Source: Candidatus Rifleibacteriota bacterium
GTDB taxonomy: Bacteria; Muiribacteriota; Ozemobacteria; Ozemobacterales; Ozemobacteraceae
DNA length: 64,000 nucleotides
Direction: 5' to 3'
Assembly (NCBI GenBank): GCA_015233155.1
Contig: JADFYG010000002.1
Location: forward strand, 110,734 to 174,733
Shown here one piece after another: positions 38,861 to 61,182 of the stretch. A program made the translations under genes and the position numbers. The notes beneath the pieces are model-generated. The model was not told the DNA's origin. It did not search any database and worked only from the letters and a program-made list of their open reading frames with translations. Each line of letters begins with the position of its first letter. The stretch's first letter is position 1.

Positions 38861-41800
38861 ATGAATGCTATGTCTGTGGCAATCGTTGGCAAAAGTTCGC
38901 TGTTTTCCGCATCATTGCAACGAAAGACCTTTTGGTTAAACCTTCTTGGCATCAAAGGGCTGATATCAGGGTTAGCCACGGGACAATGGCCTTTCAGCGA
39001 TTTTATTTCCGAAAAAGATCTGAACAAGCTTAAAGAGTTTGTCATGAACAGCGGTATCATTTCTTCCGGCGGACTTCCCAAAGATGGTTTTGAGATTCCT
39101 TCAGAGATCCTGAAGATGTCAGATGTTATTCCAATTCTTGCATTATTTCAGGCAAAGCAGGCGCTCGAAGATACAAAGAGTTTTTCTACCCGAAAATTTT
39201 CCCCTGAGAAAGCCGGGGTCATTTTTGGAACACTTCATGATACAGCTTTGATTAAAGAATATTGTATTGATCATCAGCACTCAATTTGGACAAATGCTCT
39301 TCGCAAGATCAATTGCAGTGAAGAACAAATCAAAAGCGTCTGTGAGCCCGTTATGCAGATGTTGTCTGATCAGGGAAATGATCTCTCAGAAGAAAGTATC
39401 GTAAAAAAAATCGAGAAAAAATTTGCCAATCAGTTTGGTTTCACAATTTGCCTTGCCAGGGAAAATGCACCCATCCCCGGAGTTACTGGATTGGTTTGGC
39501 TTGCTATCCGAGAACTTCGAGCAAATAAAGCAGACCTGATGATTGTTGGCGGAATCGATTGTGTTAATTCTGTTTTTTCATATCTGGATGGACTTACAAA
39601 TTCTACATCCACACAGGACAAACGCTATCGGGAAGGCCTTGGAATGATCGCTCTGCGAAGGCTGGAAGATGCTCAAAGAGATGGCGATAATATTTACGCT
39701 GTAATGTCCGCTACTGACGCATCTTTCATAACCATTTCTGAAAAACCTTCCGTGCAATGTATTAATCCGCAACCTTCTACTCCAGTAGTCGAATCAACAA
39801 AAACTGAATCTTTTCCTCGCGAATCAGGAAGCGTCGCCTCTGTAGTTGTTCAAGAGCAAACCTTTACTTTCACCGATTGCCTGATCAATGGCGAAAATGG
39901 AACCCGGGAAATCCCATGGACCATGAATCTTTCTGACAATCCATGGATTCTAGATCACAAACCTAATTATGTAATTCCAGCTCTTCCACTTATGTGCACT
40001 CTTGACTGGATGGTTCGATTTCTGGAGAAAGAAACCGGAAACAAAGTTATAGGTGTTAACAAAATGGAAGCATTGCGATGGGTCGGCTTTGATCAGCCGT
40101 CGATTCATGGCAGCATTTTGTATCGACAAACCGAATCAGGATCATGGCGAGTGGACTTGAAAACCGATCGTAATGGGGAGATGATCCGCGCCGTAGCTGC
40201 AGAATTGCAAATAGGTGCTGCTTTCCCTATCAATGAAAACAAGGAACTCTCGACACTTTTCTCCGCCGAAGATCAACCTCTTCCCTATCAAACTCATGAG
40301 GTTTCCCATGGACCATGCTTTCATTTGATGGAGCAGTGGAAATTGGGAAGAAATGGCGCTTCATGCGATATTCGAAATACAAGCCAGGGTGTTCCGTTGT
40401 ATTCGATCAATCCGGGAATGCTGGATGCATCTCTCCACGGCATTCCATGGACGCGTTTGAATCGCTGGTTTCGCGATCTTCCTGACGGACAGACAGGTTT
40501 TCCAATATCTCTTGAAAATGTGCGTTTTTTTGATCGAATTCCAACCGAAGGAATGACTCACGTCGAAACCAGACTTCTTTTTTCAAAGGGAGTTCCCAGG
40601 GTCCAGCTTTGGCTTTTTCATAATGGCGCTTGTTTCGCCACATTCAGAGTCGCCATTTTTTCCTTGCCTCTTGGCAGGTTTGGCCCCCTTTCACCGCTCA
40701 AACGTCGAGCGTTTTTTAGAGATAACAGATATGTAACTGGGGCATCCATTTCAGAAACTGGCTCAGATCAAACTCATACTGATAAAAATACACTGCGAAA
40801 TATAGACTGGCTACCGAACACTCTTTCCCGACTTTATCGAGTTTCCGGAACATCTTCAGACTGCTACAGACAGATTATCCGGGCAGAACATATTGCCCAG
40901 TTTGCACGACTTCATCCTGCTGATATCGTCTGCGATTCTACCGGTAATTCCTGCAGAAATTTGCCCTTTAACCCCATCTCCGTTTCCGTTGAAGAAAGTG
41001 GAGAGCAACTGATCGCTCGCGGCACTCCAGCTTCATCACTTGATTGGAAAAAAATTCGGTCATCCTGGGTGCAAACAATAGGACCGCGACGGTTCTTCCA
41101 TGATTTGCTGGGCGCACTTTTAGGGACTTTTGTAAATCGGGTTGTTTTGCAAAAGCCTGAGGAATTCAATTCTGTAGCTTCTCGGCCGGTAATGTATCTT
41201 GCAAATCATCAAATTGGTCTCGAATCTCCTTTATTCATGGCTCTCTCGTATGCTATGACCGCAAATACCGTTCAAGCCATTGCAAAACCTGATCATGTAA
41301 ACGCCTGGTTAGGCTTTCTTCTGGCCTTTGCCAAAGATTCGATCGGAGACAATCATCCATTCCAGTTGCTGTATTTCGATCGCTTCAAACCTCAGGGATT
41401 GCTGGAATCCCTGAAAAAAGAGGGAAGCCAGAAAGCGTCTCTTTTAGTTCATGTTGAGGGAACCAGAGCTACTGAAGCCGGACAACCCGTAACAAAATTG
41501 AGTTCCGTGTTCCTGGACATGGCTATTGCAAAAAACATTCCTGTGATTCCGGTTCGATTTGTCGGGGGTTTGCCACCTGACAAAACCTCTGAGAGACTTG
41601 ATTTTCCTTTTGGCAACGGCAAACAGGATTATTTTATCGGGGGGCCAATTCTTCCCGAAACGTTAAAAAAAATGCCCTACGGTCATCGTCCCAAATATGT
41701 CATGGATCAGATTAATTCAATGGGACCACTGAACGACGAGGATGTACTTCTTCCACCTGATAAAAAATTTGAAGATAAGACAAAGTTTTTCATGGAAACC

Positions 41801-41980
41801 TTCGGGTTTCCCAAAATGCAGGCCATGCTTTTTGCCCTGCTCGGGATAATTGATGATCCATGCGAGGAAACCGCCTTGCTCATAAAAGCTGTCCAGTCCG
41901 GAAAACTAAGCGGCGACAGCTCACAGGTTCCTCCCGTACTAAAAAACTTTCTTATTCATGTGAAAACGAAATTTTCCTGA
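38861..41980 (+). CDS. Multidomain lipid-metabolism protein: ketosynthase-like N-terminal half, hotdog/dehydratase-like middle, C-terminal lysophospholipid (AGPAT/PlsC-type) acyltransferase
   Basis: The N-terminus has KS-like FTICLA (Cys) …LMIVGGID… and YREGLGMIALRRLEDAQRDGDNIYAVM (the KS motif GEGxGxxVLKRLxDAxRDGDxIxAVI), but lacks the C-terminal His motifs of a complete ketosynthase. The middle has PWILDHKPNYVIPALP (PKS dehydratase-like HxxxGxxxxP variant). The C-terminus has AGPAT motifs LANHQIGLE (block I variant), VEGTR (block III) and IPVIPV (block IV). Confidence 0.75.
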   Translation: MNAMSVAIVGKSSLFSASLQRKTFWLNLLGIKGLISGLATGQWPFSDFISEKDLNKLKEFVMNSGIISSGGLPKDGFEIPSEILKMSDVIPILALFQAKQALEDTKSFSTRKFSPEKAGVIFGTLHDTALIKEYCIDHQHSIWTNALRKINCSEEQIKSVCEPVMQMLSDQGNDLSEESIVKKIEKKFANQFGFTICLARENAPIPGVTGLVWLAIRELRANKADLMIVGGIDCVNSVFSYLDGLTNSTSTQDKRYREGLGMIALRRLEDAQRDGDNIYAVMSATDASFITISEKPSVQCINPQPSTPVVESTKTESFPRESGSVASVVVQEQTFTFTDCLINGENGTREIPWTMNLSDNPWILDHKPNYVIPALPLMCTLDWMVRFLEKETGNKVIGVNKMEALRWVGFDQPSIHGSILYRQTESGSWRVDLKTDRNGEMIRAVAAELQIGAAFPINENKELSTLFSAEDQPLPYQTHEVSHGPCFHLMEQWKLGRNGASCDIRNTSQGVPLYSINPGMLDASLHGIPWTRLNRWFRDLPDGQTGFPISLENVRFFDRIPTEGMTHVETRLLFSKGVPRVQLWLFHNGACFATFRVAIFSLPLGRFGPLSPLKRRAFFRDNRYVTGASISETGSDQTHTDKNTLRNIDWLPNTLSRLYRVSGTSSDCYRQIIRAEHIAQFARLHPADIVCDSTGNSCRNLPFNPISVSVEESGEQLIARGTPASSLDWKKIRSSWVQTIGPRRFFHDLLGALLGTFVNRVVLQKPEEFNSVASRPVMYLANHQIGLESPLFMALSYAMTANTVQAIAKPDHVNAWLGFLLAFAKDSIGDNHPFQLLYFDRFKPQGLLESLKKEGSQKASLLVHVEGTRATEAGQPVTKLSSVFLDMAIAKNIPVIPVRFVGGLPPDKTSERLDFPFGNGKQDYFIGGPILPETLKKMPYGHRPKYVMDQINSMGPLNDEDVLLPPDKKFEDKTKFFMETFGFPKMQAMLFALLGIIDDPCEETALLIKAVQSGKLSGDSSQVPPVLKNFLIHVKTKFS

Positions 41981-45259: not shown

Positions 45260-45778
45260 TCAGTGAATTTTAGACGCCGGGAAAACATTCATGCGCTTGA
45301 GTTTTTGTGACAGATCTAGTTCGAATTCAATCTTCAGATCGTTTATATCGAAAAAAAGTATAATCTCGACCTCATCTTCATCGATCTTTTGAGGGTCGCC
45401 GAGAAAGGCAACCAGATCGTTTTTTGCAGAATTTTTTGAAAGAATGATTGTTTTTCCATCAGCGTCAACCAATGTTGTCTGAGCCTCGGCAAAGCCTTCT
45501 TTGGCATCATCCTGAATGATGAATGCAAAAAAATCTATTTTTTGATCGTCCAGTTCGACGATCAAACCATGACGAAGATAATGGAAGGTCTTATCATATA
45601 TTGGCATTTCATTGTCGGGCTTGCCGAATATCTCGAGTGCCTCGAAGGAATGTCCGAACGTCATGCCGTTCAATGTCTTATCAGCAAGGCTGAACTTCAG
45701 AGATTTACGTGGCATGGCAGGCCAGTTGCGCGTTGGATCCGACTTGAAAAACTCAATGATTCGTTTAAGAAAACTCAT
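45260..45778 (-). CDS. Hypothetical protein
   Basis: 172-aa acidic ORF with no recognised motif. Its coding likelihood rests on length and codon usage only. Confidence 0.45.
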   Translation of the reverse strand: MSFLKRIIEFFKSDPTRNWPAMPRKSLKFSLADKTLNGMTFGHSFEALEIFGKPDNEMPIYDKTFHYLRHGLIVELDDQKIDFFAFIIQDDAKEGFAEAQTTLVDADGKTIILSKNSAKNDLVAFLGDPQKIDEDEVEIILFFDINDLKIEFELDLSQKLKRMNVFPASKIH

Positions 45779-45903: not shown

Positions 45904-48786
45904 TCATATACTGGATTCTTCAGAAGACAGTGCCTCAGAACCAGGCTCCGGAGAGACATCGTCATCGCGCACCCAAAGAAAGCCATTCGGCAAGGCTTCC
46001 CCAAATGATTCGGCGATTTCAGACTCTTCAAGTCTCCGAATATTGTGAAGCGGAGCGAGAAACTCTTTTTTTCGGTTATTACGCTTGAGCTGTTCGATGA
46101 TTCGACGTCGCGTCTGCTCGTCTATTTGTACCAGAAGATCTCCGACCTTGCGACCAAGTTCTTTCAGCGCCCAATCAAGATATGAGATGTTTGCCGCCCC
46201 GTGTTTTATCAATTCTACCGCCCAGTTCTGACATACTGTGCGGCTCACCAGCAACGTATGGTCAGCATACGACAATTCGCGAGCGCCGAGCCGTCCCAAA
46301 GCATATAGAGCGACTGTATCGCGACTGAACGTAGGCGGAGCTTTTGTTATCCAGGTGCCGAGTCGTTCTTTTTCGGAAACAGGAAGACGCTCGAGATGCC
46401 CAAGCAATCTCCACAGATGATTCCGCTCATGTTGCTCGACCTTGCGTACTCCTTTTTCAATACGTTTGGGAGGAAACAATGTCGATTCTATGCGTTCGAG
46501 AAGACCTCGCTGACGATCTGCCGATAAGCCGGCTGCCACACGTTTCCAGAGAATCCACCATTCCGACCAGAACTCCGTGTTCGATGAATCGAAAGAAATG
46601 GCGGTCATAAGCGCCCATAGACGATCCAGGCGTTCATCGTCAGTGACCGTGCCAAACCCGGGACGCGCACAAAAACCCAGTATGCGAAACCAGACAATAC
46701 GCGCCTCGTCCACGGTGTTAAATCTTTCATCATTGATGAACATGTCAAACAAAGCGCGTAATGTTGACAGCTCCCAGTCTTTGCGCGATACTTGGAGAAT
46801 CTCTTCAATTCGCTTGAAAACCAGATTAAAGGAAACAGGATCTTCCGCATTTTCGACGAACAATGAGTCGCAAAGTTTTTTAACTTGTGCAGCTTCACGC
46901 TTTGTCAAAGGTTGCCGGGTTTTGCGTTGCTGTTTTTTGCCAACAGCTTCATCACCAACCGCGACCTTGCTTTCGCTTCTGGAAGCAGCTTCACGCGCCG
47001 AGTCACCAATAGCGAATGCCAGCTCCCGTTGAAATTTTCCCTCTAATGCTTTGCAGGTAATCTCTAAATAGCCTGTCTCGCGCAGTTTTACGAACAGGTT
47101 TACCTGTTCGATCGCCGTCTCGCTCTTTGAAACATTTTTCTCGGCACGCATGAATAACGGTGGAAGTGATTTATGACGACGTCCATTATAACGCGCCGTT
47201 TCACCCACTTTTTCGCCTGTTGATGACACACTGTAATACAAGTAAAATGCTGAATCACGTCCGCGGTCGAAACCGAAACTTTTGCCCTCTACATGCTCCT
47301 CCCGCTCGCTCTCGGCGCCCTTCGGAAGAAGACAAAGAACCTGTTCGGGCACATGACGCACAGGGGTTGAACTCCTGGCAGTACCGATACCGAGATACAG
47401 GGAAACAGGATTCCCGCTTTGTATACGTTCTCCCAGACCGTGTCTCGCCATTCCAAACGCCACTGCGCCGGCAGCTACCGCAAGTGTCGGATGCGGATTA
47501 TCAAGGACCGTTGGAGTCTTCCCACCGCGCCATGCGGTTATCTGATCTATCAGTCTGCGACGCAAAGCAGGCGCATTCATGGTGCCACCGTTGAACAACA
47601 CGGCATCGGGCATAATACCATTATCCGCAAGAAACGCCGCAAGATGTCGGGTGACAGCCGGATCACGCGAGTAGGGCAGGCCCGCCTCAGACAGGCCGAA
47701 TGCACCTTCTTCCATGGGCCTGGTTTCGAAAGGCGTGATAGGAAAAAAGCCTTCCAGTAAGGTATTACGGGTTTCCCTGGAGCCCAATTTTTCTTTCAAT
47801 GTGCCCGCCAAAACAGAACTTCCGGCTCCGGAAAGCGTGAATGTCAGCGTATCGTCGCTATCATCAGCAAGCAGTCGCTCTTTCGCCACCTTGCTTTGCC
47901 CAAGCAGTGCGAGCCATTGGCGCGTAAGAAGTCGCTTATTTCGGTGTTTGAGCCGTGTTTCAACTTCACGAGCCACTGCCAGATCCAGATTATCGCCACC
48001 TATAAGTAAATGTGGGCCAACAGCAAGACGTGTAAATGTAAACTTGTCGTTATTCTTTTGTAACTCAGCTGCGGGAGGGGTTATCCCTATCAGAGAAAAA
48101 TCCGTGGTTCCGCCGCCGATATCTATTACAAGAACTGTTTTAACATTATCAAGGTCTGTTTTGAGAGTTTTCGCCCGACGCACAAGAAAATCATAAAAAG
48201 CAGCCTGAGGCTCTTCCAGCAAAGTCACATCAGGAATCCCCGCCGCCGTGATTGCTTCGATGGTCAAATTGCGCGCGGCGGGGTCAAATGACGCCGGAAC
48301 AGTTATTACGATGTCCTGCTTGCTGAACTCAGCATCCGGGGATAGCGGAAGCATCACGTGATTCCAGGCTTGAACTAAATGTCGTAAGAGAAATGCGCCT
48401 GCCGCGACTGGTGACAATTTCTCGGATACCGTATCGCTTTGCCACGGCAAAATTGAAGCTGTACGATCAATGCGTGGATGAGACAGCCATGATTTAGCGC
48501 TATGGATGAGACGTGACGGAACAGAAGCACCCAATTCCCGGGCAGCTTCTCCAATTATCGGACCAAAATTCCAGGGGGTATCAGGTAAAACCAGATTTTC
48601 TTCGGGAAGATACAAAAGTGAGGGAAGTGTTGGCAAAGCCGCTGTCTCGCGAGGTGAAACAAATTGTGGAATCTTCAGAAAACGAACGCCTGCCTCTGGT
48701 TCCTCGACATCGATCCAGGCAAGCGCTGATTGAGTGGTGCCAAGATCGATGCCGATCAGATAACGCACATGTTTTCGTTTAGTCAT
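45904..48786 (-). CDS. Atypical Hsp70-family protein with long C-terminal extension (960 aa)
   Basis: N-terminus IGIDLGTTQSALAWID (phosphate-1 motif), VIDIGGGTTDFSLI (phosphate-2), an actin-like ATPase fold of about 580 aa, then a 380-aa non-DnaK C-terminal region. Confidence 0.8.
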   Translation of the reverse strand: MTKRKHVRYLIGIDLGTTQSALAWIDVEEPEAGVRFLKIPQFVSPRETAALPTLPSLLYLPEENLVLPDTPWNFGPIIGEAARELGASVPSRLIHSAKSWLSHPRIDRTASILPWQSDTVSEKLSPVAAGAFLLRHLVQAWNHVMLPLSPDAEFSKQDIVITVPASFDPAARNLTIEAITAAGIPDVTLLEEPQAAFYDFLVRRAKTLKTDLDNVKTVLVIDIGGGTTDFSLIGITPPAAELQKNNDKFTFTRLAVGPHLLIGGDNLDLAVAREVETRLKHRNKRLLTRQWLALLGQSKVAKERLLADDSDDTLTFTLSGAGSSVLAGTLKEKLGSRETRNTLLEGFFPITPFETRPMEEGAFGLSEAGLPYSRDPAVTRHLAAFLADNGIMPDAVLFNGGTMNAPALRRRLIDQITAWRGGKTPTVLDNPHPTLAVAAGAVAFGMARHGLGERIQSGNPVSLYLGIGTARSSTPVRHVPEQVLCLLPKGAESEREEHVEGKSFGFDRGRDSAFYLYYSVSSTGEKVGETARYNGRRHKSLPPLFMRAEKNVSKSETAIEQVNLFVKLRETGYLEITCKALEGKFQRELAFAIGDSAREAASRSESKVAVGDEAVGKKQQRKTRQPLTKREAAQVKKLCDSLFVENAEDPVSFNLVFKRIEEILQVSRKDWELSTLRALFDMFINDERFNTVDEARIVWFRILGFCARPGFGTVTDDERLDRLWALMTAISFDSSNTEFWSEWWILWKRVAAGLSADRQRGLLERIESTLFPPKRIEKGVRKVEQHERNHLWRLLGHLERLPVSEKERLGTWITKAPPTFSRDTVALYALGRLGARELSYADHTLLVSRTVCQNWAVELIKHGAANISYLDWALKELGRKVGDLLVQIDEQTRRRIIEQLKRNNRKKEFLAPLHNIRRLEESEIAESFGEALPNGFLWVRDDDVSPEPGSEALSSEESSI

Positions 48787-48808
48787 ACCGGGAAACTGAT
48801 TTTTGGTT

Positions 48809-50635
48809 TTATTTTATAGCCTCACGAACATTAAATTCCAATTTCCAGCGACCATCGCCTCCGACTTCCCGGCACCAGATCTCAAGTGTCCCGATTTCAG
48901 TAATGGCAACCTGTAATGTGACGCTCACGGGCGTTCCCGGAGTAACTCCTTCGCGGGCAGGGAGATCCAGCTTCAGGCTGCTGGTCTCCTCCATGTCGCT
49001 GCTCAAATCATCAAGTAATTGTCCGGGTTTGTCGTCACGGCGTGCGTTGGCCTTGAAAAACTTGAATTCGACAGGACGTCCTACCATGAGACTGAAACTG
49101 CGATTCTCTATATCCGCAATAGAACCCTCTTCCATGCCTTGTGCCGCTACGCACAACGCTTTGAGTGGCGGAGTCATTCCCGGGATGGCTGGAAGTGCTG
49201 ACTCGATGCCGATATAATATGACTGGGAGACGCCTCCGCGAATCCGGATGCCTTTCCCGCAACGCGCCAGACCAAATGCCGTCGCTCCTACCGCAACGGC
49301 GCGAGTAAGATCCATGCCTTCAAGCACCTTGATTGCGGGTTTTCCCGCTTCCTTCAGCCATGAGTTTACAACCTCGATCAGACGATCGCGGAAGGGCTGG
49401 GAGAGAAAAACACCACCATTGAACAGTATCGCTTTCGGATAGCGGAATGCATCACCGGAAGGGAGTGCATTATCGCTAGTTGATGACTGATTTTTTTCGC
49501 CGCCCTGAGCCGAAAGAAATTTGGCCAAATGCCGTGTAATTGCAGGATCAGCCGCGTAGGCAAGATTAACTTCCCGAAAACCCGCACCAGTGTCTTCCCG
49601 GGGGAAATCGGACATTTTGCATGGTGGAAAGAAGCCATCGATCAGGATCGACTCAATATCTTTGCGATCAAGAGTGGTTTTCATCGTTCCGCCGATTACT
49701 GAGCTGCCGCGCCCGGAAATAACCAGCGGCTCGGATTTGAGTTCCGGGTTGTTCAGTAAATTCTCTTTGGCTTTTCTACAGGCATGACTTAGTACAAGAG
49801 TTTGCCATGTGTCGATTTTCTTCTTAGCGGCTTCGAGTTTGCTTTTTGCGTGAAATGCGAGCGTGAGATCCATGTTGTCGCCGCCGAGAAGAATGTGATT
49901 GCCTACCGCTACTCGCTTAAGTGCAAGGTCACCATTTTCTTCCTCTATCGCAATCAGGGAAAAATCAGTCGTTCCCCCTCCGACGTCGACGACCAGTACA
50001 ACGTCGCCCTTCTTTATCTGATCGCGCCATGGAGCTTCAGACTGGGTTATCCAGGAGTAAAAAGCGGCCTGAGGTTCTTCAAGCAGTGTGACATCAGACA
50101 AACCGGACTGCTTTGCCGCTTCGACGATCAAATCACGTGCAGCCGCATCGAATGAGGCTGGAATCGTTATAATGACCTGCTGGTCTTCGAGTTTGTGTTT
50201 GTTTTTATGGTTCCAGGAGGCACGGGCATGTGCGAGATATTCGCTCATTGCTTCCAGGGGCGAGATTTTTTTGGTTCCTTCCGGGGCATTCCAGGGTAGA
50301 ATCGGATCGCGTCGGTTGACGCGCGGATTGCATAACCATGATTTTGCAGAACTGATTAATCGCGCTGGAACTTCGGCACCGCGTTCCCTGGCATACTCGC
50401 CAACGATGAATGGACTTTCTCTTTTCCAGGGGAGGGCAGCTTTTTCCTGAAGGCGTTCGAATAAAAATGAAGGTAGAATATCGCGCTCTTCAACGCTTCC
50501 CTGAGCGAATTCCTGGATTAGTGGAAAAACTTTTATTTCAGGCTTCTTGTCTTCGGCCGCCGAAATAGTAGTGTGTGTAACTACCGTGTTGGTTGTTCCG
50601 AGATCGATTCCAACAATGCTTTTTGCCTGACTCAT
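48809..50635 (-). CDS. Atypical Hsp70-family protein (608 aa)
   Basis: VGIDLGTTNTVVTH, VVDVGGGTTDFSLIA; a DnaK-like NBD with a divergent substrate-binding region. It overlaps the upstream DUF2760-like gene by 4 nt. Confidence 0.85.
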   Translation of the reverse strand: MSQAKSIVGIDLGTTNTVVTHTTISAAEDKKPEIKVFPLIQEFAQGSVEERDILPSFLFERLQEKAALPWKRESPFIVGEYARERGAEVPARLISSAKSWLCNPRVNRRDPILPWNAPEGTKKISPLEAMSEYLAHARASWNHKNKHKLEDQQVIITIPASFDAAARDLIVEAAKQSGLSDVTLLEEPQAAFYSWITQSEAPWRDQIKKGDVVLVVDVGGGTTDFSLIAIEEENGDLALKRVAVGNHILLGGDNMDLTLAFHAKSKLEAAKKKIDTWQTLVLSHACRKAKENLLNNPELKSEPLVISGRGSSVIGGTMKTTLDRKDIESILIDGFFPPCKMSDFPREDTGAGFREVNLAYAADPAITRHLAKFLSAQGGEKNQSSTSDNALPSGDAFRYPKAILFNGGVFLSQPFRDRLIEVVNSWLKEAGKPAIKVLEGMDLTRAVAVGATAFGLARCGKGIRIRGGVSQSYYIGIESALPAIPGMTPPLKALCVAAQGMEEGSIADIENRSFSLMVGRPVEFKFFKANARRDDKPGQLLDDLSSDMEETSSLKLDLPAREGVTPGTPVSVTLQVAITEIGTLEIWCREVGGDGRWKLEFNVREAIK

Positions 50636-51348
50636 GCTATCTCGACCTCAGCGGGAGCAATAACGCGACCTTCCCAACCTGAAACGAGTTCCGGAAGTTT
50701 ACACTCCCTCAGGCGCCATCCGCGATGAACGAGTGTTCCACGATATGGTCCCGTGGGAGCCACATTTCCGGTAAGTTTTATGGCATGCTGATCAATGCTT
50801 GTTCCCAGATCGACTGTTTCTCCTTCGGGCGCTTCGATTATGTGCTCGATTATCAGCCGGTCCTGGAGTATTTTTTTGAGATCAGCATGAATCGGACGAA
50901 TGGCCCCCCCAAGCTCTTCATCCTGGAAAGGCGTGATGTCTTCCATCAGGAAATCGAGCAAACGCCCCTCCTTCTGCAATAAATACAGGATCTGCAATGC
51001 TATGGCGGGTGGCGCGCCGGAGTCGCTGGAAGGAACAGGTTTGGGCTCCGGTTTAGGCTCGGGCTTCGGAGTCTCTGGAGCGGGCACCGGCATCGGTTGT
51101 GGAGGAGGGGCAGGCAACGTTACTGACGCTTTAGCGCACGGTTCGTCCATCGAAAGCAAACTGGCAATGGAAGTGAACAGAGCCGCAAAGAAAAAAAGAC
51201 TGATTCCTATTGTCAGATTAATCTTATTGATCTCAATCAAAAAGAGAAGCAATTTTGCTGATGGGGCTTTGTGCAAAATTGCAGCAGTACCTGAAATGAT
51301 AATGGTTGAACCTGCGAGGGTAAGCAGGGCCATGAACTTTTTCAGCAT
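50632..51348 (-). CDS. DUF2760-like membrane protein (Hsp70-associated)
   Basis: Two N-terminal TM helices, a Pro-rich PEPKPEPKPEPKP linker, and a conserved C-terminal region (ALQILYLLQKEGRLLDFLMEDITPFQDEELGGAIRPIHADLKKIL…). The domain assignment is from memory of the family pattern, not from a search. Confidence 0.55.
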   Translation of the reverse strand: MLKKFMALLTLAGSTIIISGTAAILHKAPSAKLLLFLIEINKINLTIGISLFFFAALFTSIASLLSMDEPCAKASVTLPAPPPQPMPVPAPETPKPEPKPEPKPVPSSDSGAPPAIALQILYLLQKEGRLLDFLMEDITPFQDEELGGAIRPIHADLKKILQDRLIIEHIIEAPEGETVDLGTSIDQHAIKLTGNVAPTGPYRGTLVHRGWRLRECKLPELVSGWEGRVIAPAEVEIA

Positions 51349-51621
51349 CGCTGACCTCGTTTTTTATACAATTTGAAGCATGTTAGTATGATGGAAAGTC
51401 TTTATGCAAGTCAAGAGGTCTTCGAATCGAAAAAACTTGTCGCTCAAGGGCTTGCGTTATTTTGGTCTGTCCGGTAAGCTTATCAAAGTATATTTCTTCT
51501 AAGCATGAAGAAATTGTATTTATTATTGAGTATTGCGTAGATGTTCGTTCCTGGAAATCTCGTTTAAAAACCTAAGTTGTTCGTGTGTTTTCACACATTT
51601 TGTATCAAGTAGGGAGTAAAA

Positions 51622-52707
51622 ATGCGACGTATATTATCTGCATTGATAGGTTTTTCTCTCTTTGTCGGGACTCTTGTTTTTGTTCCGACCCTCTATGCCG
51701 GAACTCTTGAACAGTGGTCTGGCCGCCTTGAAGCTGTCGAAGATCAGGAAATCCGACAAACCCTCCAGAACAGCATTATCGCAGGTCTGATTGTCAGTCC
51801 AGCCGATTTTGATACCGCTCTCGCGTGTGCAAATTCTCGTAAAAATGGCGGAAACCCACATAACGGCGGAAACACAAATGGTGGGAGTCTGAATGAGACC
51901 ATAGCCAAATTGTCCGCTTCTATTCCTCAGCTTGATCGCGACGCAGTCGCTGCACAAAAAGGTGACGGAATGCGCGGACATCTTTTCGAACCTATAATTG
52001 GGAATCTGCCCCCCAGCTTCGAAGCAGCATACAATCTGGCCATAAAATTTGATCCGCGGTCCGGAACGAATGACGCCCCACGTCTCGACAAAGACATTGA
52101 CGCCTTTTTGGCAGTCATTGCTGACGACCCCGTTATCAAACAGGCACTGAGTTCGACCGGCACAACTATAAGCGATCTTAAGCGCAACTGGTTTGGCCCC
52201 GGATTGGGCTTTGAACACGTAATCGCAGGCGAAATCAAAGGCAGTGAAGTCAGCGGATACCATTGGTGGTATAAGTTTTATCGTGATGAAATTGCAGGCA
52301 ATGCGAAATACATATCGACTATGGGCAATGTAGGTGACCAGCATGCTTATACCGGCCAGTTCTCCTGGGACCCGGACGGCGACGGCCCGCTACCTCGTGC
52401 CGTCAAGCACAAAGGCGGCTTCATTATAGGAAATTCCGTTCAGGCAATTTTGGCTCTCGGTCATATAGCTATTGAGTCAGCCCGTAAGCTCGGAAACATT
52501 CCAGGCGCCTTCACTTTCGACGCGAATGTTAACGGTGAAACCTTTACTTGGCAATGTTACACGATTAGCGGCTCAATCCGAAGTCTTTATCCGATGGGTG
52601 GAAAAGCGGGGTTGCCGGCTCCGGCAGATGCAAGTCGAGAGTATTACGAGCTGGAAGAAGATGCAGCGAAGGCCTTGAATCACGCAGGAAGTCTTACAGT
52701 TCACTAA
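51622..52707 (+). CDS. Secreted hypothetical protein
   Basis: Signal peptide MRRILSALIGFSLFVGTLVFVPTLYAG; an RBS-like GGGAG upstream. No recognised catalytic motif (HWWYKFY…SWDPDGDG). Confidence 0.55.
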   Translation: MRRILSALIGFSLFVGTLVFVPTLYAGTLEQWSGRLEAVEDQEIRQTLQNSIIAGLIVSPADFDTALACANSRKNGGNPHNGGNTNGGSLNETIAKLSASIPQLDRDAVAAQKGDGMRGHLFEPIIGNLPPSFEAAYNLAIKFDPRSGTNDAPRLDKDIDAFLAVIADDPVIKQALSSTGTTISDLKRNWFGPGLGFEHVIAGEIKGSEVSGYHWWYKFYRDEIAGNAKYISTMGNVGDQHAYTGQFSWDPDGDGPLPRAVKHKGGFIIGNSVQAILALGHIAIESARKLGNIPGAFTFDANVNGETFTWQCYTISGSIRSLYPMGGKAGLPAPADASREYYELEEDAAKALNHAGSLTVH

Positions 52708-55016: not shown

Positions 55017-55430
55017 TCAGAATCTTCTGTGACGAATGCCGTCAATAATATGCATTAGCGCTAGCAGTGGCCGAACAAAAAGAAGTCTTGGACCCGCAAA
55101 ACGCATCACTTCGCGCACTGCTTTGCGTGATTCAACAGAGTAACAATGGATTTTACAATTTGCACATGTGGGCTTGTCTGAGCCGAACGGGCAGCGGGAA
55201 AGTCTTGTCCGGGCTATGTTTTTTAACTCGAAACACGTTTTACAAAGCCGGCTGTTTTTTTCATGCGAGGGCTTGTCCTGACATGTCTCCGGTCTGTTAT
55301 GGCCATGATCACAATATATTTGGATCATAGCTGCAATAGTGCGATATTCCCTTGTGAGACGGTCTTTGCACGGAAAAAACATCATTACCTCCATGGATTT
55401 TTCCTGTATTACGTCAGTGAAGTTTCGCAC
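55017..55430 (-). CDS. Cys-rich small protein, possibly nitrous-oxide-stimulated promoter (YgbA-like) family
   Basis: CDHGHNRPETC…LCKTCFELK…CPFGSDKPTCANCKIHCY. Multiple CxxC pairs. Family assignment tentative. Confidence 0.45.
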   Translation of the reverse strand: MRNFTDVIQEKSMEVMMFFPCKDRLTREYRTIAAMIQIYCDHGHNRPETCQDKPSHEKNSRLCKTCFELKNIARTRLSRCPFGSDKPTCANCKIHCYSVESRKAVREVMRFAGPRLLFVRPLLALMHIIDGIRHRRF

Positions 55431-55588: not shown

Positions 55589-56044
55589 ATGTCAAAGCTA
55601 TTGAGAGTCCTTCAGCGGGAACAATGTATCGGGTGTCTGAGCTGTATGCTTGCGTGCAGTCGATCATGGTTTGCAGCGCTGACGGTTGAAAAAGCTGCGT
55701 TGCGCATTCGCAATTACGCTGGTGTCGAAGGAGCTTTTTCAATCAGAGCTTGCTACGGTTGTCTGGAACCTGACTGTGCACGAGCATGTCCGACGGGAGC
55801 GTTGTCCAATCGTTCCGGTGGTGGAGTGATTCTCGACGTCAAAAAATGCGATAACTGCGGTGATTGTGTCAAAGCATGTGTTCCCAAAGCCCTCCAGTGG
55901 GATGTTGAAGCGCGCCAGCCGATTCCATGTCGTCACTGCGGGATCTGCACCGGATTTTGTCCAAATGCGGTTATCGGTATGACGGATTCCGACGCAGGCA
56001 CCAATGGCCCCGACATGATCAAACCGGCCCGAAAGGATCAATGA
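55589..56044 (+). CDS. 4Fe-4S ferredoxin-domain protein
   Basis: CIGCLSCMLAC, CYGCLEPDCARACP, CDNCGDCVKACVP and CRHCGICTGFCP cysteine clusters. RBS AGGAGGG upstream of ATG 55589. ATGA overlap with aldehyde:ferredoxin oxidoreductase. Confidence 0.8.
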   Translation: MSKLLRVLQREQCIGCLSCMLACSRSWFAALTVEKAALRIRNYAGVEGAFSIRACYGCLEPDCARACPTGALSNRSGGGVILDVKKCDNCGDCVKACVPKALQWDVEARQPIPCRHCGICTGFCPNAVIGMTDSDAGTNGPDMIKPARKDQ

Positions 56045-57813
56045 CGATGGCTACGCGCAAATTTCAAATGATGGATGTGAACCTCACGACAGGCGAGTCA
56101 GGAATAACTGATATTTCCGACTTGTTTGACGAATTTCTTGGTGGGACTGGCGTTGCAACTAAACTGTTGTCGGAAATGCCTCCCGGGATGGATTCATATT
56201 CTGCGGAAGCCCCTGTGATCTTTGCCATCGGACCATTCGACACAATATTTCCGGTTGCAACAAAGACTGTGGCATTGTTCAAGTCTCCCCTCACCGGAAA
56301 TCTTGGCGAGTCACACGCCGGTGGACGCCTGGCTATGGCAATGTATGGAGCCGGTATTCACGTACTGCGTATCAGGGGGCGTGCTCCAACATTGTCATAT
56401 CTCGTAATAGATGAAGAGACGGCTGTTGTGAAACGTGCCAACTCTCTCAAGGGAATGTCGGCTCTCGCGACTGAGCGGATGTTGCGCGACCGTGAAGATT
56501 CCGAATTCAAGCGATCTATTATTCGTATCGGTCCGGCCGGCGAAAGGTTGTCGCCAATCGGTGAAGTTACCGTCGATGCCGCGCGACATTTCGGACGTCT
56601 TGGCCTTGGAGGTGTTCTTGGTTCAAAAAATCTTAAAGCCATCATGATTTCCGGAGGCAAATACTGGAAGATTGATAATAAGGGACAATTCAATATCTTC
56701 TACAAGAAGCTTTATGACAGTGTCGTAAACTCACCACTCATGAAAAAATATCACGAACTTGGAACATCGGTAAACGTAATTCCACTGTCGAAAATCAATG
56801 GAATGCCGACTCGAAATTTTAGCCAGGGCTCATTCGAGGGCGCGCGTGAAATCAGCGGCGAACGTTTTGCCGAGAAACATCTCAATCAACAGATAGCCTG
56901 TGCGCACTGCCAGGTTGGTTGCATTCACGTAGCTTCGCTTCGTGAACGATTCAGTGCCGAAGATCAGCATTACAAGACGTTCAAGGTATCATATGATCAC
57001 GAACTTATTTATGCCTGGGGCTCCAATCTTTCAATAGGTTCGACGGAAGAAATTTTGCGCCTGTTGCTTATCGTAGAAAAACAAGGCTGGGACGCCATTT
57101 CAATGGGTACAACTCTTGCTTGGACGGTTGACGCCTACGCTCATGGCTTCATAGGTGATAAGGAAACAGTTGGTTTGATTCCTGCATTTGGCGATGCGAA
57201 GACGTTTGAAAAAATGCTCGGTCGCATTATATCCGGGCATAACGAGTTTTATCGCAGTCTTGAAAAAGGTTCCGTTTTTTGTGCGCGCATTTATGGTGGA
57301 AAAGAATATTCAATCGCTTTTGGAGGAAATGAAGCAGCCGGATATTCGACAGGATTATGGGGATTTCTCGGTTACGCGACAGGAGTTCGCCATTCACATC
57401 TTGATGCGGCTGGTTATTCGATTGATCAAGGCAATATATCCAATCCGCAAAGCGACGAAATACTCACCAGAAATTTATATAATGAATCCGTCTGGAGAAT
57501 GATCCTGAATTCGCTTGTCATATGTCTATTTGCGCGAAATGTCTATACGAAAGAAATTATTCTCGAAGGACTTGATGTATTAGGCATTAGTGGCTGGACC
57601 GAAGATCGTCTGATCAAGACTTCACGACACATTCACGCACTAAAATACAAATTCAAGGAAGATTGCGGTTTTAAATTTGAGGACCAGGAGCTTCCGGGAC
57701 GATTGCTCAGGACGGTCACCAGCAGTGGGATGCTATCGAGCGAACGCTTCCGCACTGAAATCGATCGGTACAAGTCATTCATTGCCGATGATCGGCGGTC
57801 TTTGGGAATATGA
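56041..57813 (+). CDS. aor: Aldehyde:ferredoxin oxidoreductase (tungsten-containing AOR family)
   Basis: The N-terminus MTMATRKFQMMDVNLTTGE fits the aldehyde:ferredoxin oxidoreductase N-terminal signature (…VNLTTG…). Length about 590 aa. Coupled to the upstream ferredoxin. Confidence 0.85.
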   Translation: MTMATRKFQMMDVNLTTGESGITDISDLFDEFLGGTGVATKLLSEMPPGMDSYSAEAPVIFAIGPFDTIFPVATKTVALFKSPLTGNLGESHAGGRLAMAMYGAGIHVLRIRGRAPTLSYLVIDEETAVVKRANSLKGMSALATERMLRDREDSEFKRSIIRIGPAGERLSPIGEVTVDAARHFGRLGLGGVLGSKNLKAIMISGGKYWKIDNKGQFNIFYKKLYDSVVNSPLMKKYHELGTSVNVIPLSKINGMPTRNFSQGSFEGAREISGERFAEKHLNQQIACAHCQVGCIHVASLRERFSAEDQHYKTFKVSYDHELIYAWGSNLSIGSTEEILRLLLIVEKQGWDAISMGTTLAWTVDAYAHGFIGDKETVGLIPAFGDAKTFEKMLGRIISGHNEFYRSLEKGSVFCARIYGGKEYSIAFGGNEAAGYSTGLWGFLGYATGVRHSHLDAAGYSIDQGNISNPQSDEILTRNLYNESVWRMILNSLVICLFARNVYTKEIILEGLDVLGISGWTEDRLIKTSRHIHALKYKFKEDCGFKFEDQELPGRLLRTVTSSGMLSSERFRTEIDRYKSFIADDRRSLGI

Positions 57814-57828
57814 AGCTTACTGGCCACT

Positions 57829-60800
57829 CTATTTGTATGCCGGTTTATTATCCGATTTACTGAATCGTCGAAGTACATTCTCAATAGTTTCCATGCTTAC
57901 AGGTTTGGCTAGATAATCGTCCATACCCGCTTCTATGCAATGGTCACGATCTCCGGACATGGCCATGGCAGTCAAAGCAATCACCGGAGTGTGTGATCGT
58001 CCTTCAGCGGCTTCTATGCTGCGAATTGTATGAGTCGCGGTGAAACCATCCATTTCAGGCATCTGGCAATCCATGAGAATCAAATCGAACTTCTTTCGTT
58101 TGAAACATTCTATTGCCGAAAAACCAGTTTCCGCGACTTCGACACGACAGCCAAAACATGAAATCATGGACGTCATAACTTTTTGGTTGACTACATTGTC
58201 TTCGGCAAGCAGCAAATCCATGTCATATCGATCACCGGCAATATCAGGCTTATGGGCTTCTGATGAAGCTGCTGAGTGAATATTTCCGGTCGGGATGGCG
58301 CTACCTGTCGACAAAAATTCATCGCTCTGACGAGCGATTGTTGGTGGAACTTCCTTTGGATTAACATTTTTATCGGGCAGTATCTTCGAATCTTCACTCG
58401 GAGCCATTGGCAAATCCAGATTGATGATGAATGTCGAACCTTCATTTACTCGACTGGTAAAGTCCATTGTTCCACCCATAAGATCAATCAATTGTTTGGA
58501 AATGGCCAAGCCAAGGCCGGTTCCGCCAAACTGTCGTGTTATCGTGGAGCTACCCTGCGAAAATTTCTGAAACATGGTGGCCTTTTGACTGTCCGGAATT
58601 CCTATTCCTGTATCTGAGACTTCGATGCGTATTCGCGCGTGCCCGGTCGAAGTGTCGATTGCAAAAACATCAACTGTTACGCGACCGCGTTCCGTAAATT
58701 TTATGGCATTGCCAACCAGGTTGGTGAGAATCTGGCGCAAGCGGCCGGGATCACCCAGGAATCGCCGGGGAGTCTCAGGTGAATATCGGACCAAAAACTC
58801 GAGATTTTTTTGTTCAGCGGAGGTGGAAAGAAGGCGGCGAATTGAATCGACGACAGTGGAAAGATCAAAGGGAATTATTTCGAGCGTCATTTTCCCTGCC
58901 TGGATTTTTGAAAAATCCAGTATGTCATTGATAATAGTCAGGAGAGCATTGGCTGATCCCAGGATAGTCTGGACCCATTCGCGTTCGCGCGGTGCCATGG
59001 ACGACTCGAGCAGTAATTCCGAGAAACCTATAATGCTGTTCATCGGGGTACGAATCTCATGTGACATGTTAGCCAGAAACTGGCTTTTGGCACTGTTAGC
59101 GATTTTAGCCTGTTCAAGCGCTTCGGCCAAATGTTTCTGATTTCTTTCAAGATCATTTTGTATCGACTTTTGCATTGTCAGATCGACGATAATGCCCACG
59201 AATTTATTGATCCTGCCATCCCTTTCCACGATCGGATTCAACGCAACCTGACAGGAAAGCAACGCGCCAGTGCGTGGGTGGACATATTCCGAGTCGAACA
59301 TCACTCGCTTCCCCTGCAACGACTGTTCAATGGATTTCTCGATGATCGGTTCGAAACCGTTTGGCCATATTTCGCAGAAATGATGTCCGATTATTGTTTC
59401 TGGATCGCGCCCAAGCCATTCAAGACCGGTTGGATTAACCGTACGACATTTTCCTTCGAAATCGAATAGAATTATGCAGTTCGGGGATCCCTGAACTATT
59501 GTGTGATACAAACTTTCGCTGGCTGTACGCAGTTCAGCTGATTCCTGAATATTTTCGAACGCGATGAAGCTCCCTATTAGCCCGAGGCTTAACAGCAACA
59601 TTACGATGATTCCGAAGAATCTGGCTATTGGAATTTCCTCGGATGGCCGAATAATAACCGTACTCCAGCCACTGATTTCAACCGGTGTACGCGTGATAAA
59701 CGCAGGGCGTTTTTCCCAGGAAATAATTCCTTCCTCCGGAACGGAATCAGCAAACAATGGTTTGCCGATAAGACTACCGAACCCGGAACCTGCGGAAAGA
59801 TCGGCTACTTTCGCGACTTCAGATGCTGAGAGAGGCCGAATCGGTCGGAATAAAAAATCGGGGTGGTTAGCTGCGAAAATAATTCCAAATGGATCCACCA
59901 ACATGCATGGAATGTCGTCACGCAGAAGCTGGGCCATATTCACCAACGGATTTTTTACCACGGCCGCTCCAATGGTGCCACCGGTTGGATGAAATATCGG
60001 ACAGCTTGCAAACATAGCCGGAAATTTAGAGTTCGCATCATACGCAATATATCGAGTCGGGAAGCCTCTCATGGATCTAAAGAAATATTTGCGGAACACA
60101 TCTGATGTTCCGGACGCACCTTCGGAGGAATCACTACTCGAAGTCGTCATTACTGCTCCACTCTCGTTCATGAGATAACAAGTGGAATTCTTGAATGGTA
60201 AGGAAAGACGGACGACCAGATCGTGAGCCTCAGAGACTACATTAACACATGGTTTAACTGATTTGCAGATTTCCAGGGCCTCCGGTGCGCGTGAAAGAAT
60301 TCCGGCTACGCGCTCTGTTTCGGTGAATACCTGATTTAATCTTTCGGCTATAACGCCTGAATATAAGCGTGCCGCCTGGGAGATCGAGGAATGAGCCAAC
60401 TGACCCAGCAAACATACCCCCCCCCAACCGGCGGTCAGAAGACAGAAAAGCATTACCGTGACACGTGGGCCATAACTGATTCTACGGCCATGCTGAGTTT
60501 CGCCAAGGGCTTCAAGTTCGTCATTTCCATATCTGCTTTGAGTTCGACAGAAAGCCCATATGCTGATGGTAATCCAGCAGGCTGCGCCGGCTCTCAATAT
60601 TTGGACAGGAATTCCGATTAGTCCCGTGAACGAAGTATAGTTTAGTACATTGGCGGGGAAAAATGGCGCCTCCGGTGTTATGAGACCGCTTACAATTGCA
60701 TAAAAGAGCATTCCGATAGAAGCTCCACCCAGGTAATTAGTGAAAACGCTGCCGCCATTGCCATTTTTCGACGGATATCGATCGATAAAACTTTTTTTAC

Positions 60801-61182
60801 GATTAACGTTCTCAAAGTAAAAAAGGCATCCAGCCAATAATGCACCCGGAAGGCCCAGTGTATAACGTAGAGTTGCATTTGCGCCGGCCGGACCAAACGT
60901 AAATCCGGCAACTCCTGTGGCGATTAGCGGAATATGTATCCATGCCCCGATGGAAAGAGTTTTACTCAAAGCGAGACCGCGTCGCCCGAATTCGAAGAGG
61001 CAAATGAATGAAGAGGCCATGATGATCGTTCGCACGATCGAAAAGCGAAGAGAGTCACCAAATGAGATTGCAACAAGATCGGTCCACTCGGCAAATCCGT
61101 GAATCAATCCAAAGTAAGTAAGCCAGAGCCACGGAAATGCTTTTTCCCGAGCGTGAAAGATTAGCGTTTGCGCCGCAAGCAA
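57829..61182 (-). CDS. Hybrid sensor histidine kinase with large N-terminal multi-TM domain, PAS, HisKA, HATPase_c and C-terminal receiver
   Basis: More than 8 N-terminal TM helices; PAS-like regions; H-box MSHEIRTPMNSIIGFSELL; HATPase G-boxes (GGTGLGLAISKQL); REC domain with DLLLAEDN…LILMDCQMPEMDG. Confidence 0.85.
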   Translation of the reverse strand: MLAAQTLIFHAREKAFPWLWLTYFGLIHGFAEWTDLVAISFGDSLRFSIVRTIIMASSFICLFEFGRRGLALSKTLSIGAWIHIPLIATGVAGFTFGPAGANATLRYTLGLPGALLAGCLFYFENVNRKKSFIDRYPSKNGNGGSVFTNYLGGASIGMLFYAIVSGLITPEAPFFPANVLNYTSFTGLIGIPVQILRAGAACWITISIWAFCRTQSRYGNDELEALGETQHGRRISYGPRVTVMLFCLLTAGWGGVCLLGQLAHSSISQAARLYSGVIAERLNQVFTETERVAGILSRAPEALEICKSVKPCVNVVSEAHDLVVRLSLPFKNSTCYLMNESGAVMTTSSSDSSEGASGTSDVFRKYFFRSMRGFPTRYIAYDANSKFPAMFASCPIFHPTGGTIGAAVVKNPLVNMAQLLRDDIPCMLVDPFGIIFAANHPDFLFRPIRPLSASEVAKVADLSAGSGFGSLIGKPLFADSVPEEGIISWEKRPAFITRTPVEISGWSTVIIRPSEEIPIARFFGIIVMLLLSLGLIGSFIAFENIQESAELRTASESLYHTIVQGSPNCIILFDFEGKCRTVNPTGLEWLGRDPETIIGHHFCEIWPNGFEPIIEKSIEQSLQGKRVMFDSEYVHPRTGALLSCQVALNPIVERDGRINKFVGIIVDLTMQKSIQNDLERNQKHLAEALEQAKIANSAKSQFLANMSHEIRTPMNSIIGFSELLLESSMAPREREWVQTILGSANALLTIINDILDFSKIQAGKMTLEIIPFDLSTVVDSIRRLLSTSAEQKNLEFLVRYSPETPRRFLGDPGRLRQILTNLVGNAIKFTERGRVTVDVFAIDTSTGHARIRIEVSDTGIGIPDSQKATMFQKFSQGSSTITRQFGGTGLGLAISKQLIDLMGGTMDFTSRVNEGSTFIINLDLPMAPSEDSKILPDKNVNPKEVPPTIARQSDEFLSTGSAIPTGNIHSAASSEAHKPDIAGDRYDMDLLLAEDNVVNQKVMTSMISCFGCRVEVAETGFSAIECFKRKKFDLILMDCQMPEMDGFTATHTIRSIEAAEGRSHTPVIALTAMAMSGDRDHCIEAGMDDYLAKPVSMETIENVLRRFSKSDNKPAYK

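Follow-up and report, generated by a model that had tools for sequence, protein, structure and literature searches.

A conserved DUF2760 and double-Hsp70 gene triad from Candidatus Riflebacteria as a candidate membrane-tethered chaperone module

The function of Hsp70 chaperones depends on a J-domain protein and a nucleotide-exchange factor. In the eukaryotic Hsp70-Hsp110 (Ssa/Hsc70-Sse1) and Ssb-Ssz1/RAC systems, two Hsp70-superfamily paralogs act together, one of them with an enlarged C-terminal helical region, and the canonical linker and J-coupling features have been lost; in addition, a partner protein anchors RAC to a cellular structure. Among bacterial systems, E. coli HscC, which has a lid, works with the membrane-anchored J-proteins DjlB/DjlC, a similar pairing is known for DjlA and DnaK, and HscA is encoded beside its specific partner or client in the HscA-HscB-IscU system. 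Here we describe an operon of three genes in a 64,000-nucleotide stretch of DNA (hereafter the window, meaning the whole stretch analysed) from a metagenome-assembled genome of Candidatus Riflebacteria. They encode a DUF2760 protein (D) and two Hsp70 paralogs (A and B), and our tentative reading is that the three form a membrane-tethered Hsp70 machine.

The triad shares with the paired systems the combination of two Hsp70 paralogs, the enlarged helical C-terminus of one of them, the altered linker and the candidate tether. It differs from them in that it is bacterial and known from sequence alone, that A and B both keep their catalytic residues and the beta subdomain of the substrate-binding domain (SBD-beta), that the helical extension of B (DUF3731, ~300 aa, basic) is unrelated in sequence to the helical lid (SBD-alpha), and that the tether would be a membrane protein of novel fold without a J-domain. 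With HscC-DjlB/DjlC and DjlA-DnaK it has in common a specialised bacterial Hsp70 and a dedicated, membrane-anchored partner encoded nearby; however, the partners there are J-domain proteins, which DUF2760 is not, and HscC has a lid. It resembles HscA-HscB-IscU in that a dedicated Hsp70 is encoded beside a specific partner or client, but it comprises a pair of Hsp70s where the isc system has a single one, A lacks a lid, and neither isc genes nor HscB are present.

It is recognised that the roles of the many divergent Hsp70 paralogs in bacteria have yet to be settled (PMC13580251, PMC8265645). A 2026 review proposed that bacterial DnaK derivatives containing a nucleotide-binding domain (NBD) may be Hsp110-like cochaperones (PMC13580251). 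Of the M. xanthus Hsp70s, none but the canonical DnaKs is essential or complements E. coli dnaK, and the rest look like helpers (PMC8265645). The D-A-B triad is not treated in that survey (PMC8265645); myxobacteria also carry it (loci L030 and L043). We considered the M. xanthus stk locus as a characterised counterpart. There, too, an atypical Hsp70 that is not a heat-shock protein shares a small operon with genes that do not encode chaperones, but it is a separate operon without DUF2760 and DUF3731, in which the exopolysaccharide regulator StkA (540 aa) is followed by the SCP2-like StkB and the PhaE-like StkC (PMC4319316), and it was rejected. In V. cholerae, VC1373 and VC1374 are annotated as 'DnaK-related protein', and VC1373-1375 appear in a published list as a single operon that is repressed in biofilm. 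The region between VC1375 and VC1376 contains a HapR site; HapR activates the fragment termed the VC1375 promoter both in vivo and in vitro, and the listed transcription start is on the plus strand. From the annotation and from the triad-bearing Vibrio locus L056, VC1373-1375 may be a D-A-B triad; the published HapR site was absent from the one Vibrio locus compared. In the literature searched we found no mention of DUF2760, DUF3731, PF10816 or PF12531, and no characterised function for the triad.

The three genes lie on the minus strand, as do all features of them given below. Gene D (50632-51348; MBF0498821.1) encodes a protein of 238 aa that matched PF10816 (DUF2760) over residues 116-236 and profile positions 4-124 of 124 (E=1.7e-39, 134.9 bits, gathering cutoff 25). 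Gene A (48809-50635; MBF0498820.1) encodes a lidless Hsp70 paralog of 608 aa, and gene B (45904-48786; MBF0498819.1) an Hsp70 paralog of 960 aa with matches to both PF00012 and PF12531 (DUF3731). All three open reading frames (ORFs) are identical to consecutive GenBank proteins, which are labelled only 'DUF2760 domain-containing protein' and 'Hsp70 family protein'. Both A (64.6 bits, E=7e-18) and B (44.4 bits) passed the PF00012 cutoff of 20.6 bits with only part of the NBD aligned (profile positions ~106-302 of 599). The D stop and the A start overlap in an ATGA (50632-50635), which suggests translational coupling, and a spacer of 22 nt (48787-48808) separates A from B. A preliminary description, made from this DNA alone, had given the same order of a DUF2760-like protein and two Hsp70s of these lengths, tightly spaced or overlapping and without characterised function, and our results agree with it at exactly these positions. 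Given the long ORFs, the strong family matches and an arrangement kept in dozens of distant genomes, the triad is far beyond chance.

With two peptide patterns for DUF2760, taken from a domain-only alignment, we scanned a single genome of each GTDB species and recovered DUF2760 in at least 582 species-representative genomes of about 10 phyla. The carriers included Riflebacteria, Beta- and Gammaproteobacteria, Myxococcota, Desulfobacterota, Acidobacteriota, Planctomycetota, Chloroflexota, Gemmatimonadota, Binatia and others. Within a set of 80 related loci, 49 had D, A and B colinear on one strand, one had A and B fused, one had B inverted and two had D-B; apart from the D-A and D-only loci taken up below, the rest were cut by contig ends. 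An Hsp70 gene lay directly downstream of DUF2760 in at least 66 of the 80 loci, in line with the co-occurrence mentioned in the preliminary description, and the identical 4-nt D/A overlap was present in 29. D-A is the tighter core, with B usually, not always, adjacent.

Co-chaperone genes were nearly absent from these surroundings. Six-frame translations of the 64-kb window contained no J-domain or GrpE ORF, as expected from the preliminary description, and among the 80 loci J-domain ORFs occurred within 10 kb in two and GrpE in none. Clustering of the flanking ORFs linked dnaK to none of the 80 loci and revealed no fourth conserved gene, since the clusters consisted of the Hsp70s, D, a shadow ORF, and heterogeneous histidine kinases and response regulators. 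A cluster present at 25 loci was rejected as a fourth gene, as it comprised scattered histidine kinases and response regulators with no fixed position. The module was found in 0 of 50,697 phage records and in 11 of 72,556 plasmid records; most of these 11 are chromids of Burkholderia and Caballeronia, where the annotation is also generic. In a single case, the 900-kb conjugative plasmid pCB82_1 of Bradyrhizobium sp. CB82 (L082, 9866-11910), groES-groEL lies ~1 kb downstream of D-A-B.

We also found A and B joined in one polypeptide. The fusion P0185 (1,536 aa) aligned end to end, first to A (48% over 608 residues) and then to B (34% over 955), and P0186 (1,501 aa) and a 1,545-aa ORF of L035 had the same layout. 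The three fusions come from three lineages and are only about 40-54% identical to one another; that the fusion persists across such divergence is the best indication at hand of a joint physical action of A and B.

Separately, DUF2760 was observed without an adjacent Hsp70 in six loci (L021, L027, L033, L058, L026 and L076; Desulfosarcina, Gemmataceae and other Planctomycetota, Polyangiaceae), where the next gene encoded a histidine kinase, a GH32 glycosidase or a Ser/Thr kinase and the otherwise invariant DUF2760 residues were somewhat relaxed. These proteins may have Hsp70-independent uses, or partners encoded elsewhere.

We then compared A and B with each other and with named Hsp70 families. 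A and B were 35% identical over ~600 residues of the NBD and beta domain (E=1e-102), and A was 25% identical to E. coli DnaK over 265 residues; by these values A and B are sister paralogs and each other's closest relatives. Their NCBIfam scores were 36-78 bits, against cutoffs of 331-1019 for DnaK, HscA and YegD. In particular, the canonical DnaK models (TIGR02350, NF001413) gave 46-55 bits (cutoffs 648-822), the YegD model NF008673 gave 36-40 bits (cutoff 331) and the HscA models, which included the best-scoring one (78 bits), gave 60-78 bits (cutoffs 620-743), while no HscC model appeared among the NCBIfam matches of either protein. A and B therefore seem to fall outside every named bacterial Hsp70 family, which fits the earlier statement that neither is a canonical DnaK. 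The DnaK sequence was used only as a ruler, and its numbered residues printed as expected. In its numbering, both proteins keep D8, T11, K70, P143, R151, E171, D194, T199 and D201. Where DnaK has the interdomain linker VLLLD, A reads RIRGG and B reads RIQSG, and both have Thr at the position of the J-domain contact R167. The features for J-coupling, namely the hydrophobic linker and R167, have thus been lost in both proteins.

In A, residues 1-460 (49256-50635) form the NBD according to the alignment to DnaK. The catalytic set is complete (D11, T14, K98, E187, D217, T222, D224, G407-G408) and at least 97% conserved in 59 orthologues. Residues 461-608 (48812-49255) make up an SBD-beta-like domain, assigned from homology to B 455-593; A 461-604 aligned to the SBD-beta region of B, the structure being predicted for B only. 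As A ends at residue 608, directly after this beta domain, it has no alpha-helical lid. The SBD-beta of A was about as conserved as its NBD (0.48 vs 0.49), and the isoelectric point (pI) of A was 5.2 across orthologues.

The AlphaFold2 (AF2) model of B had a mean confidence (pLDDT) of 83.7 and a pTM of 0.79. The NBD (residues 1-450; 47437-48786) was delimited by alignment, motif mapping and Foldseek, and its catalytic residues D14, T17, K98, E192, D222, T227, D229 and G400-G401 were invariant in 46 orthologues. Residues 460-591 (47014-47409) were all-beta in the model and were assigned to SBD-beta by model superposition. Foldseek matched B to DnaK and BiP at E=1e-25 to 1e-21, and its NBD and beta domain together superposed on full-length and lid-truncated DnaK/BiP, with TMt values of 0.66-0.68 to docked lidless states (0.68 to 7krv; root-mean-square deviation (rmsd) of 6.6 A over 620 columns to 6eoc). 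Sse1 (2qxl) matched the model no better than DnaK did. Since NBD and beta domain superpose on DnaK and BiP, the beta domain is a genuine SBD-beta. The preliminary description had called the substrate-binding regions of both proteins divergent; this stands for the sequence and is refined for the fold, which is retained in the model.

We did not find a canonical SBD-alpha lid in B. The beta domain is instead followed by a disordered basic linker (residues 592-628; 46903-47013; pLDDT 32-46, pI 10) and a 300-aa basic, all-alpha domain of ~17 predicted helices that is unrelated to the lid (residues 629-928; 46003-46902). The latter gives a name to the long non-DnaK C-terminal extension noted before, as residues 698-936 matched PF12531 (DUF3731, 'DNA-K related protein'; E=3.1e-56, 191.4 bits, cutoff 25). 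B ends in an acidic disordered tail (residues 929-960; 45907-46002; pLDDT 31-43, pI 4.05), which is preceded by a conserved GExLPxG motif with invariant P933 and G935. The invariant residues of DUF3731 were mostly Arg, Trp and Gly (W671, R677, R708-P-G-x-G712, D716, R719, W744, R749, R832, R836, W855 and R879), and its median pI in orthologues was 9.4, in contrast to the acidic rest of B (pI 5.9). Residues 737-753 (window ~46528-46578), with the motif EFWSEWWILWKRVAAGL, form a nearly invariant Trp/Arg-rich helix (consensus EWWxLWRRxAGGL) that could be a core element of the solenoid or an interfacial membrane-binding helix.

A HMMER search with DUF3731 in 1.84 billion cluster representatives returned 1,004 proteins at E<=1e-3 and 672 at 1e-10. 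The domain was always C-terminal in the best 150 of the 1,004 matches, and full-length proteins had ~890-1,000 aa, the shorter ones looking like N-terminally cut fragments; among the matches listed, DUF3731 is restricted to the C-terminus of this Hsp70 lineage. A search with its profile against PDB sequences and the other Pfam families gave faint HEAT-type matches but nothing significant.

D was modelled with AF2 from a 72-sequence alignment (pLDDT 81). Residues 2-65 (51154-51345) form a hydrophobic helical hairpin, a predicted membrane anchor according to Kyte-Doolittle and AF2, with hydrophobic segments at residues 5-26 and 33-52 and helices at 2-27, 31-40 and 42-65 (pLDDT 85-94). Residues 66-115 (51004-51153) are a disordered Pro-rich spacer that contains PEPKPEPKPEP (pLDDT 46-62). 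The transmembrane helices and the proline-rich linker described for this protein beforehand are thus both recognisable. At least one hydrophobic segment was present in 61 of the 72 homologues; the membrane anchor of this partner protein is common, not universal. Some relatives (P0032, P0044, P0088 and other Rifleibacterium-type proteins) have a coiled coil of ~150-200 aa, matching Pfam coiled-coil families (Fez1, CENP-F and others), in place of the ~50-aa Pro-rich spacer, so the distance from anchor to domain is highly variable and the end domain nearly invariant.

This end domain (residues 116-238; 50635-51003), delimited by the 72-sequence alignment and the model (pLDDT 80-95), is an acidic alpha/beta domain with helices at 116-164 and six strands at 165-237. 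Fifteen of its columns were invariant across the 72 sequences, which span several phyla; the invariant residues include Q125, D132, G147, R151, E175, G194, P201, G204, H208, G210, W211, P219, E234 and E236. A surface loop at 211-230 (pLDDT 60-79) holds the invariant L218-P219. The median pI of the domain was 5.5 in 80 orthologues. The model had no match in the PDB or BFVD at E<=0.001, and the DUF2760 domain is accordingly predicted to be a novel fold. No J-domain was found in a Pfam scan of the 72 homologues. A relation of D to TonB was rejected, with 21.6 bits against an NCBIfam cutoff of 265 and only the anchor and Pro-rich region matching.

We also examined GrpE, since two GrpE structures (9a81_A and 3a6m_A) ranked highest among the protein-specific fold matches of the D model in the PDB. 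These matches were non-significant (E=0.44 and 3.0, TM 0.24-0.28, rmsd about 8 A), and what the two share is an order of helices followed by a small beta domain. Comparison of DUF2760 with a GrpE profile by hhalign gave a probability of 0.05%, the GrpE alignment being of low diversity and enterobacterial only, and none of the 72 DUF2760 proteins had a PF01025 signal at E<=10. The GrpE set was gathered with an E. coli GrpE query, whose matches carry PF01025 and GrpE names at 97-99% identity. Given the hhalign and HMMER results, the homology suggested by Foldseek is unsupported and was rejected; a loose topological resemblance is possible.

Regarding expression signals, a consensus scan found a sigma-70-like promoter candidate (TTGACT-18-CATACT; 51385-51414, minus strand; a pattern match only) ~36 nt upstream of the D start codon, inside a 273-bp divergent intergenic region. 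The window contained no CIRCE operator at <=3 mismatches, sigma-32-type promoters not having been searched, and membership in a heat-shock regulon was rejected in view of the missing CIRCE. The neighbours of the triad in the window include BioY, GNAT, endonuclease V and others, with no isc genes near it. A 172-aa ORF on the same strand (45260-45778, minus), 125 nt downstream of B, could be co-transcribed. It had no Pfam, NCBIfam or PADLOC match and a homologue in 0 of the 80 loci, and is outside the conserved module. Divergent from D is a 361-aa protein (51622-52707, plus strand) with a signal-peptide-like N-terminus and a partial match to XendoU (PF09412, E=1e-14, profile positions 141-262 of 262), a eukaryote-type endoribonuclease domain uncommon in bacteria; this gene also had a counterpart in 0 of the 80 loci.

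Further away, a 1,039-aa ORF (38861-41980, plus strand) looks like an unusual fusion of a weak N-terminal beta-ketoacyl-synthase match (5-128) and a C-terminal acyltransferase domain (770-900), with a large middle region without assignment. At 55017-55430 (minus strand) and 55927-57813 (plus strand), a protein of the YgbA_NO family ('nitrous oxide-stimulated promoter' family) adjoins a ferredoxin-like ORF and an aldehyde:ferredoxin oxidoreductase, and a 1,117-aa PAS hybrid histidine kinase (57829-61182) follows the oxidoreductase. These four have no relation to the triad.

Based on these data, our preferred reading, which we put forward tentatively and at somewhat less than even confidence, is that the three genes encode a heterodimeric Hsp70 machine that is self-contained, tethered to the membrane and equipped with a partner protein of a new kind; the earlier idea of a membrane-tethered chaperone would survive in this form. 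A conceptual precedent is the published suggestion that DnaK-derived paralogs of bacteria may serve as Hsp110-like cochaperones (PMC13580251). The machine would sit at the cytoplasmic face of the inner membrane, where D would be anchored through its N-terminal hydrophobic hairpin. The flexible Pro-rich spacer, or the coiled coil of the relatives, would present the acidic DUF2760 domain, and this domain would make contact with and recruit A, the translationally coupled and most constant partner of D. A (NBD and SBD-beta, no lid) and B (NBD, SBD-beta and a basic alpha-solenoid DUF3731) would form a heterodimer of catalytically active sister ATPases; given the conservation of their catalytic residues, both are probably working ATPases. 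The replaced R167 and the RIRGG/RIQSG linkers, together with the few linked J-domain genes and the lack of linked GrpE, suggest that neither is J- or GrpE-driven in the canonical way. By their likeness to the Hsp70-Hsp110 and Ssb-Ssz1 pairs, the control of the ATPase and the nucleotide exchange, for which DnaK relies on DnaJ and GrpE, would come from the paralog and/or D, with a division of labour within the pair. DUF3731 would serve either as a larger lid or as a surface on which an acidic partner (the D domain, a client or anionic lipid) docks; the charges of the DUF2760 domain and DUF3731 are complementary across orthologues (pI 5.5 vs 9.4). A bolder form of this proposal, which we regard as doubtful, is that DUF2760 represents an unrecognised class of Hsp70 cofactor with a new fold, which stands in for the J-protein and/or GrpE and holds a bacterial Hsp70-Hsp70 heterodimer at the membrane.

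Several points weigh against our proposal. The charge complementarity is equally explained by binding of lipid or nucleic acid, and A or B could still be acted on by a canonical DnaK, DnaJ or GrpE whose gene lies elsewhere. About 13 of the 80 loci were D-A with room downstream but no B, and about five had D alone, so an A-B heterodimer is not obligatory in cis; in 10 loci with D-A only, the residues of D showed no clear change in the absence of B. Eleven of the 72 D homologues had no clear hydrophobic segment, and homologues with one and with two segments must insert in different orientations to keep the domain cytoplasmic. Finally, the set of 80 loci comprises the top scorers of a scan that depended on peptide patterns, and their ORFs were called crudely as maximal ORFs.

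Among the other explanations, the Hsp70 pair may act on D as its dedicated client or regulated substrate, in the way that HscA acts on IscU and DnaK on sigma-32; we consider this unlikely overall. The SBD-beta of A or B would bind a motif in D, for example the invariant [KR]-L-P-x-L loop at 217-222, and ATP-driven remodelling would switch the activity of D at the membrane. A specialised bacterial Hsp70 with a single operon-encoded client is established in HscA-IscU, and this general precedent, the invariant L218-P219 in a lower-confidence surface loop of D, the equal conservation of SBD-beta and NBD in A, as would suit a fixed ligand, and the tight D/A coupling all speak for it. However, HscA still needs the J-protein HscB, of which no counterpart is linked to the triad, the need for two active, sometimes fused, Hsp70s is left unexplained, and the motif idea stems from likeness to LPPVK only; moreover, a client role for D is compatible with an adaptor role and does not exclude it. 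We give still less weight to A and/or B being Hsp110-like nucleotide-exchange co-chaperones of the housekeeping DnaK, concentrated at the membrane by D, where they would boost DnaK-driven disaggregation or membrane-protein quality control. The loss of J-coupling features in A and B agrees with such a role, as do the hypothesis already published for NBD-containing DnaK derivatives (PMC13580251) and the helper-like, non-canonical Hsp70s of M. xanthus (PMC8265645). It is harder to reconcile with a conserved SBD-beta and complete catalytic sites in both proteins, which are under strong selection, with A~B fusions that point to A and B as partners of each other, and with the lack of linked dnaK in all 80 loci.

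The remaining two explanations seem far less probable. The triad could in principle be a conflict or defence system, or a stress-triggered membrane effector, in which the ATPases restrain or activate a membrane-perturbing D; we judge this very improbable. A small transmembrane protein beside large ATPases is a common layout of defence systems, which the triad shares, and A had a weak PADLOC match to the candidate PDC-M61B (E=2e-6, 95 residues), but this match covers only the generic ASKHA phosphate-2 region and D had no PADLOC match. The neighbours are metabolic or housekeeping genes and are not conserved, and the module is retained across whole genera such as Massilia and Duganella, so that it looks vertical and not island-like. 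With no PADLOC support, none in phages and rarity on plasmids, a defence system was rejected. That A and B are ordinary DnaK, HscA or HscC with co-chaperones just outside the window has the generic PF00012 match in its favour and is refuted for practical purposes: the NCBIfam scores are far below the family cutoffs, A is closer to B over a longer alignment than to DnaK, its lid is absent and its linker non-canonical, and J-domain and GrpE genes are missing from the 64 kb and nearly so beside the triads elsewhere, as are isc genes and CIRCE from this locus. The rest of the probability we assign to mechanisms beyond those listed.

If the bolder form of our proposal is true, the triad would be a prokaryotic analogue of the paired machines Hsp70-Hsp110 and Ssb-Ssz1, and the design of an Hsp70 plus an Hsp70-like regulator would have arisen in bacteria too and could run without a J-domain. 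The module, found from Riflebacteria to Vibrio, Burkholderia and myxobacteria, is a concrete, genetically tractable system in which one can ask whether other cofactors drive Hsp70s, whether Hsp110-like pairing exists in bacteria, and which membrane-proximal process needs paired Hsp70s. Work on it would also give a function to two Pfam families, DUF2760 and DUF3731.

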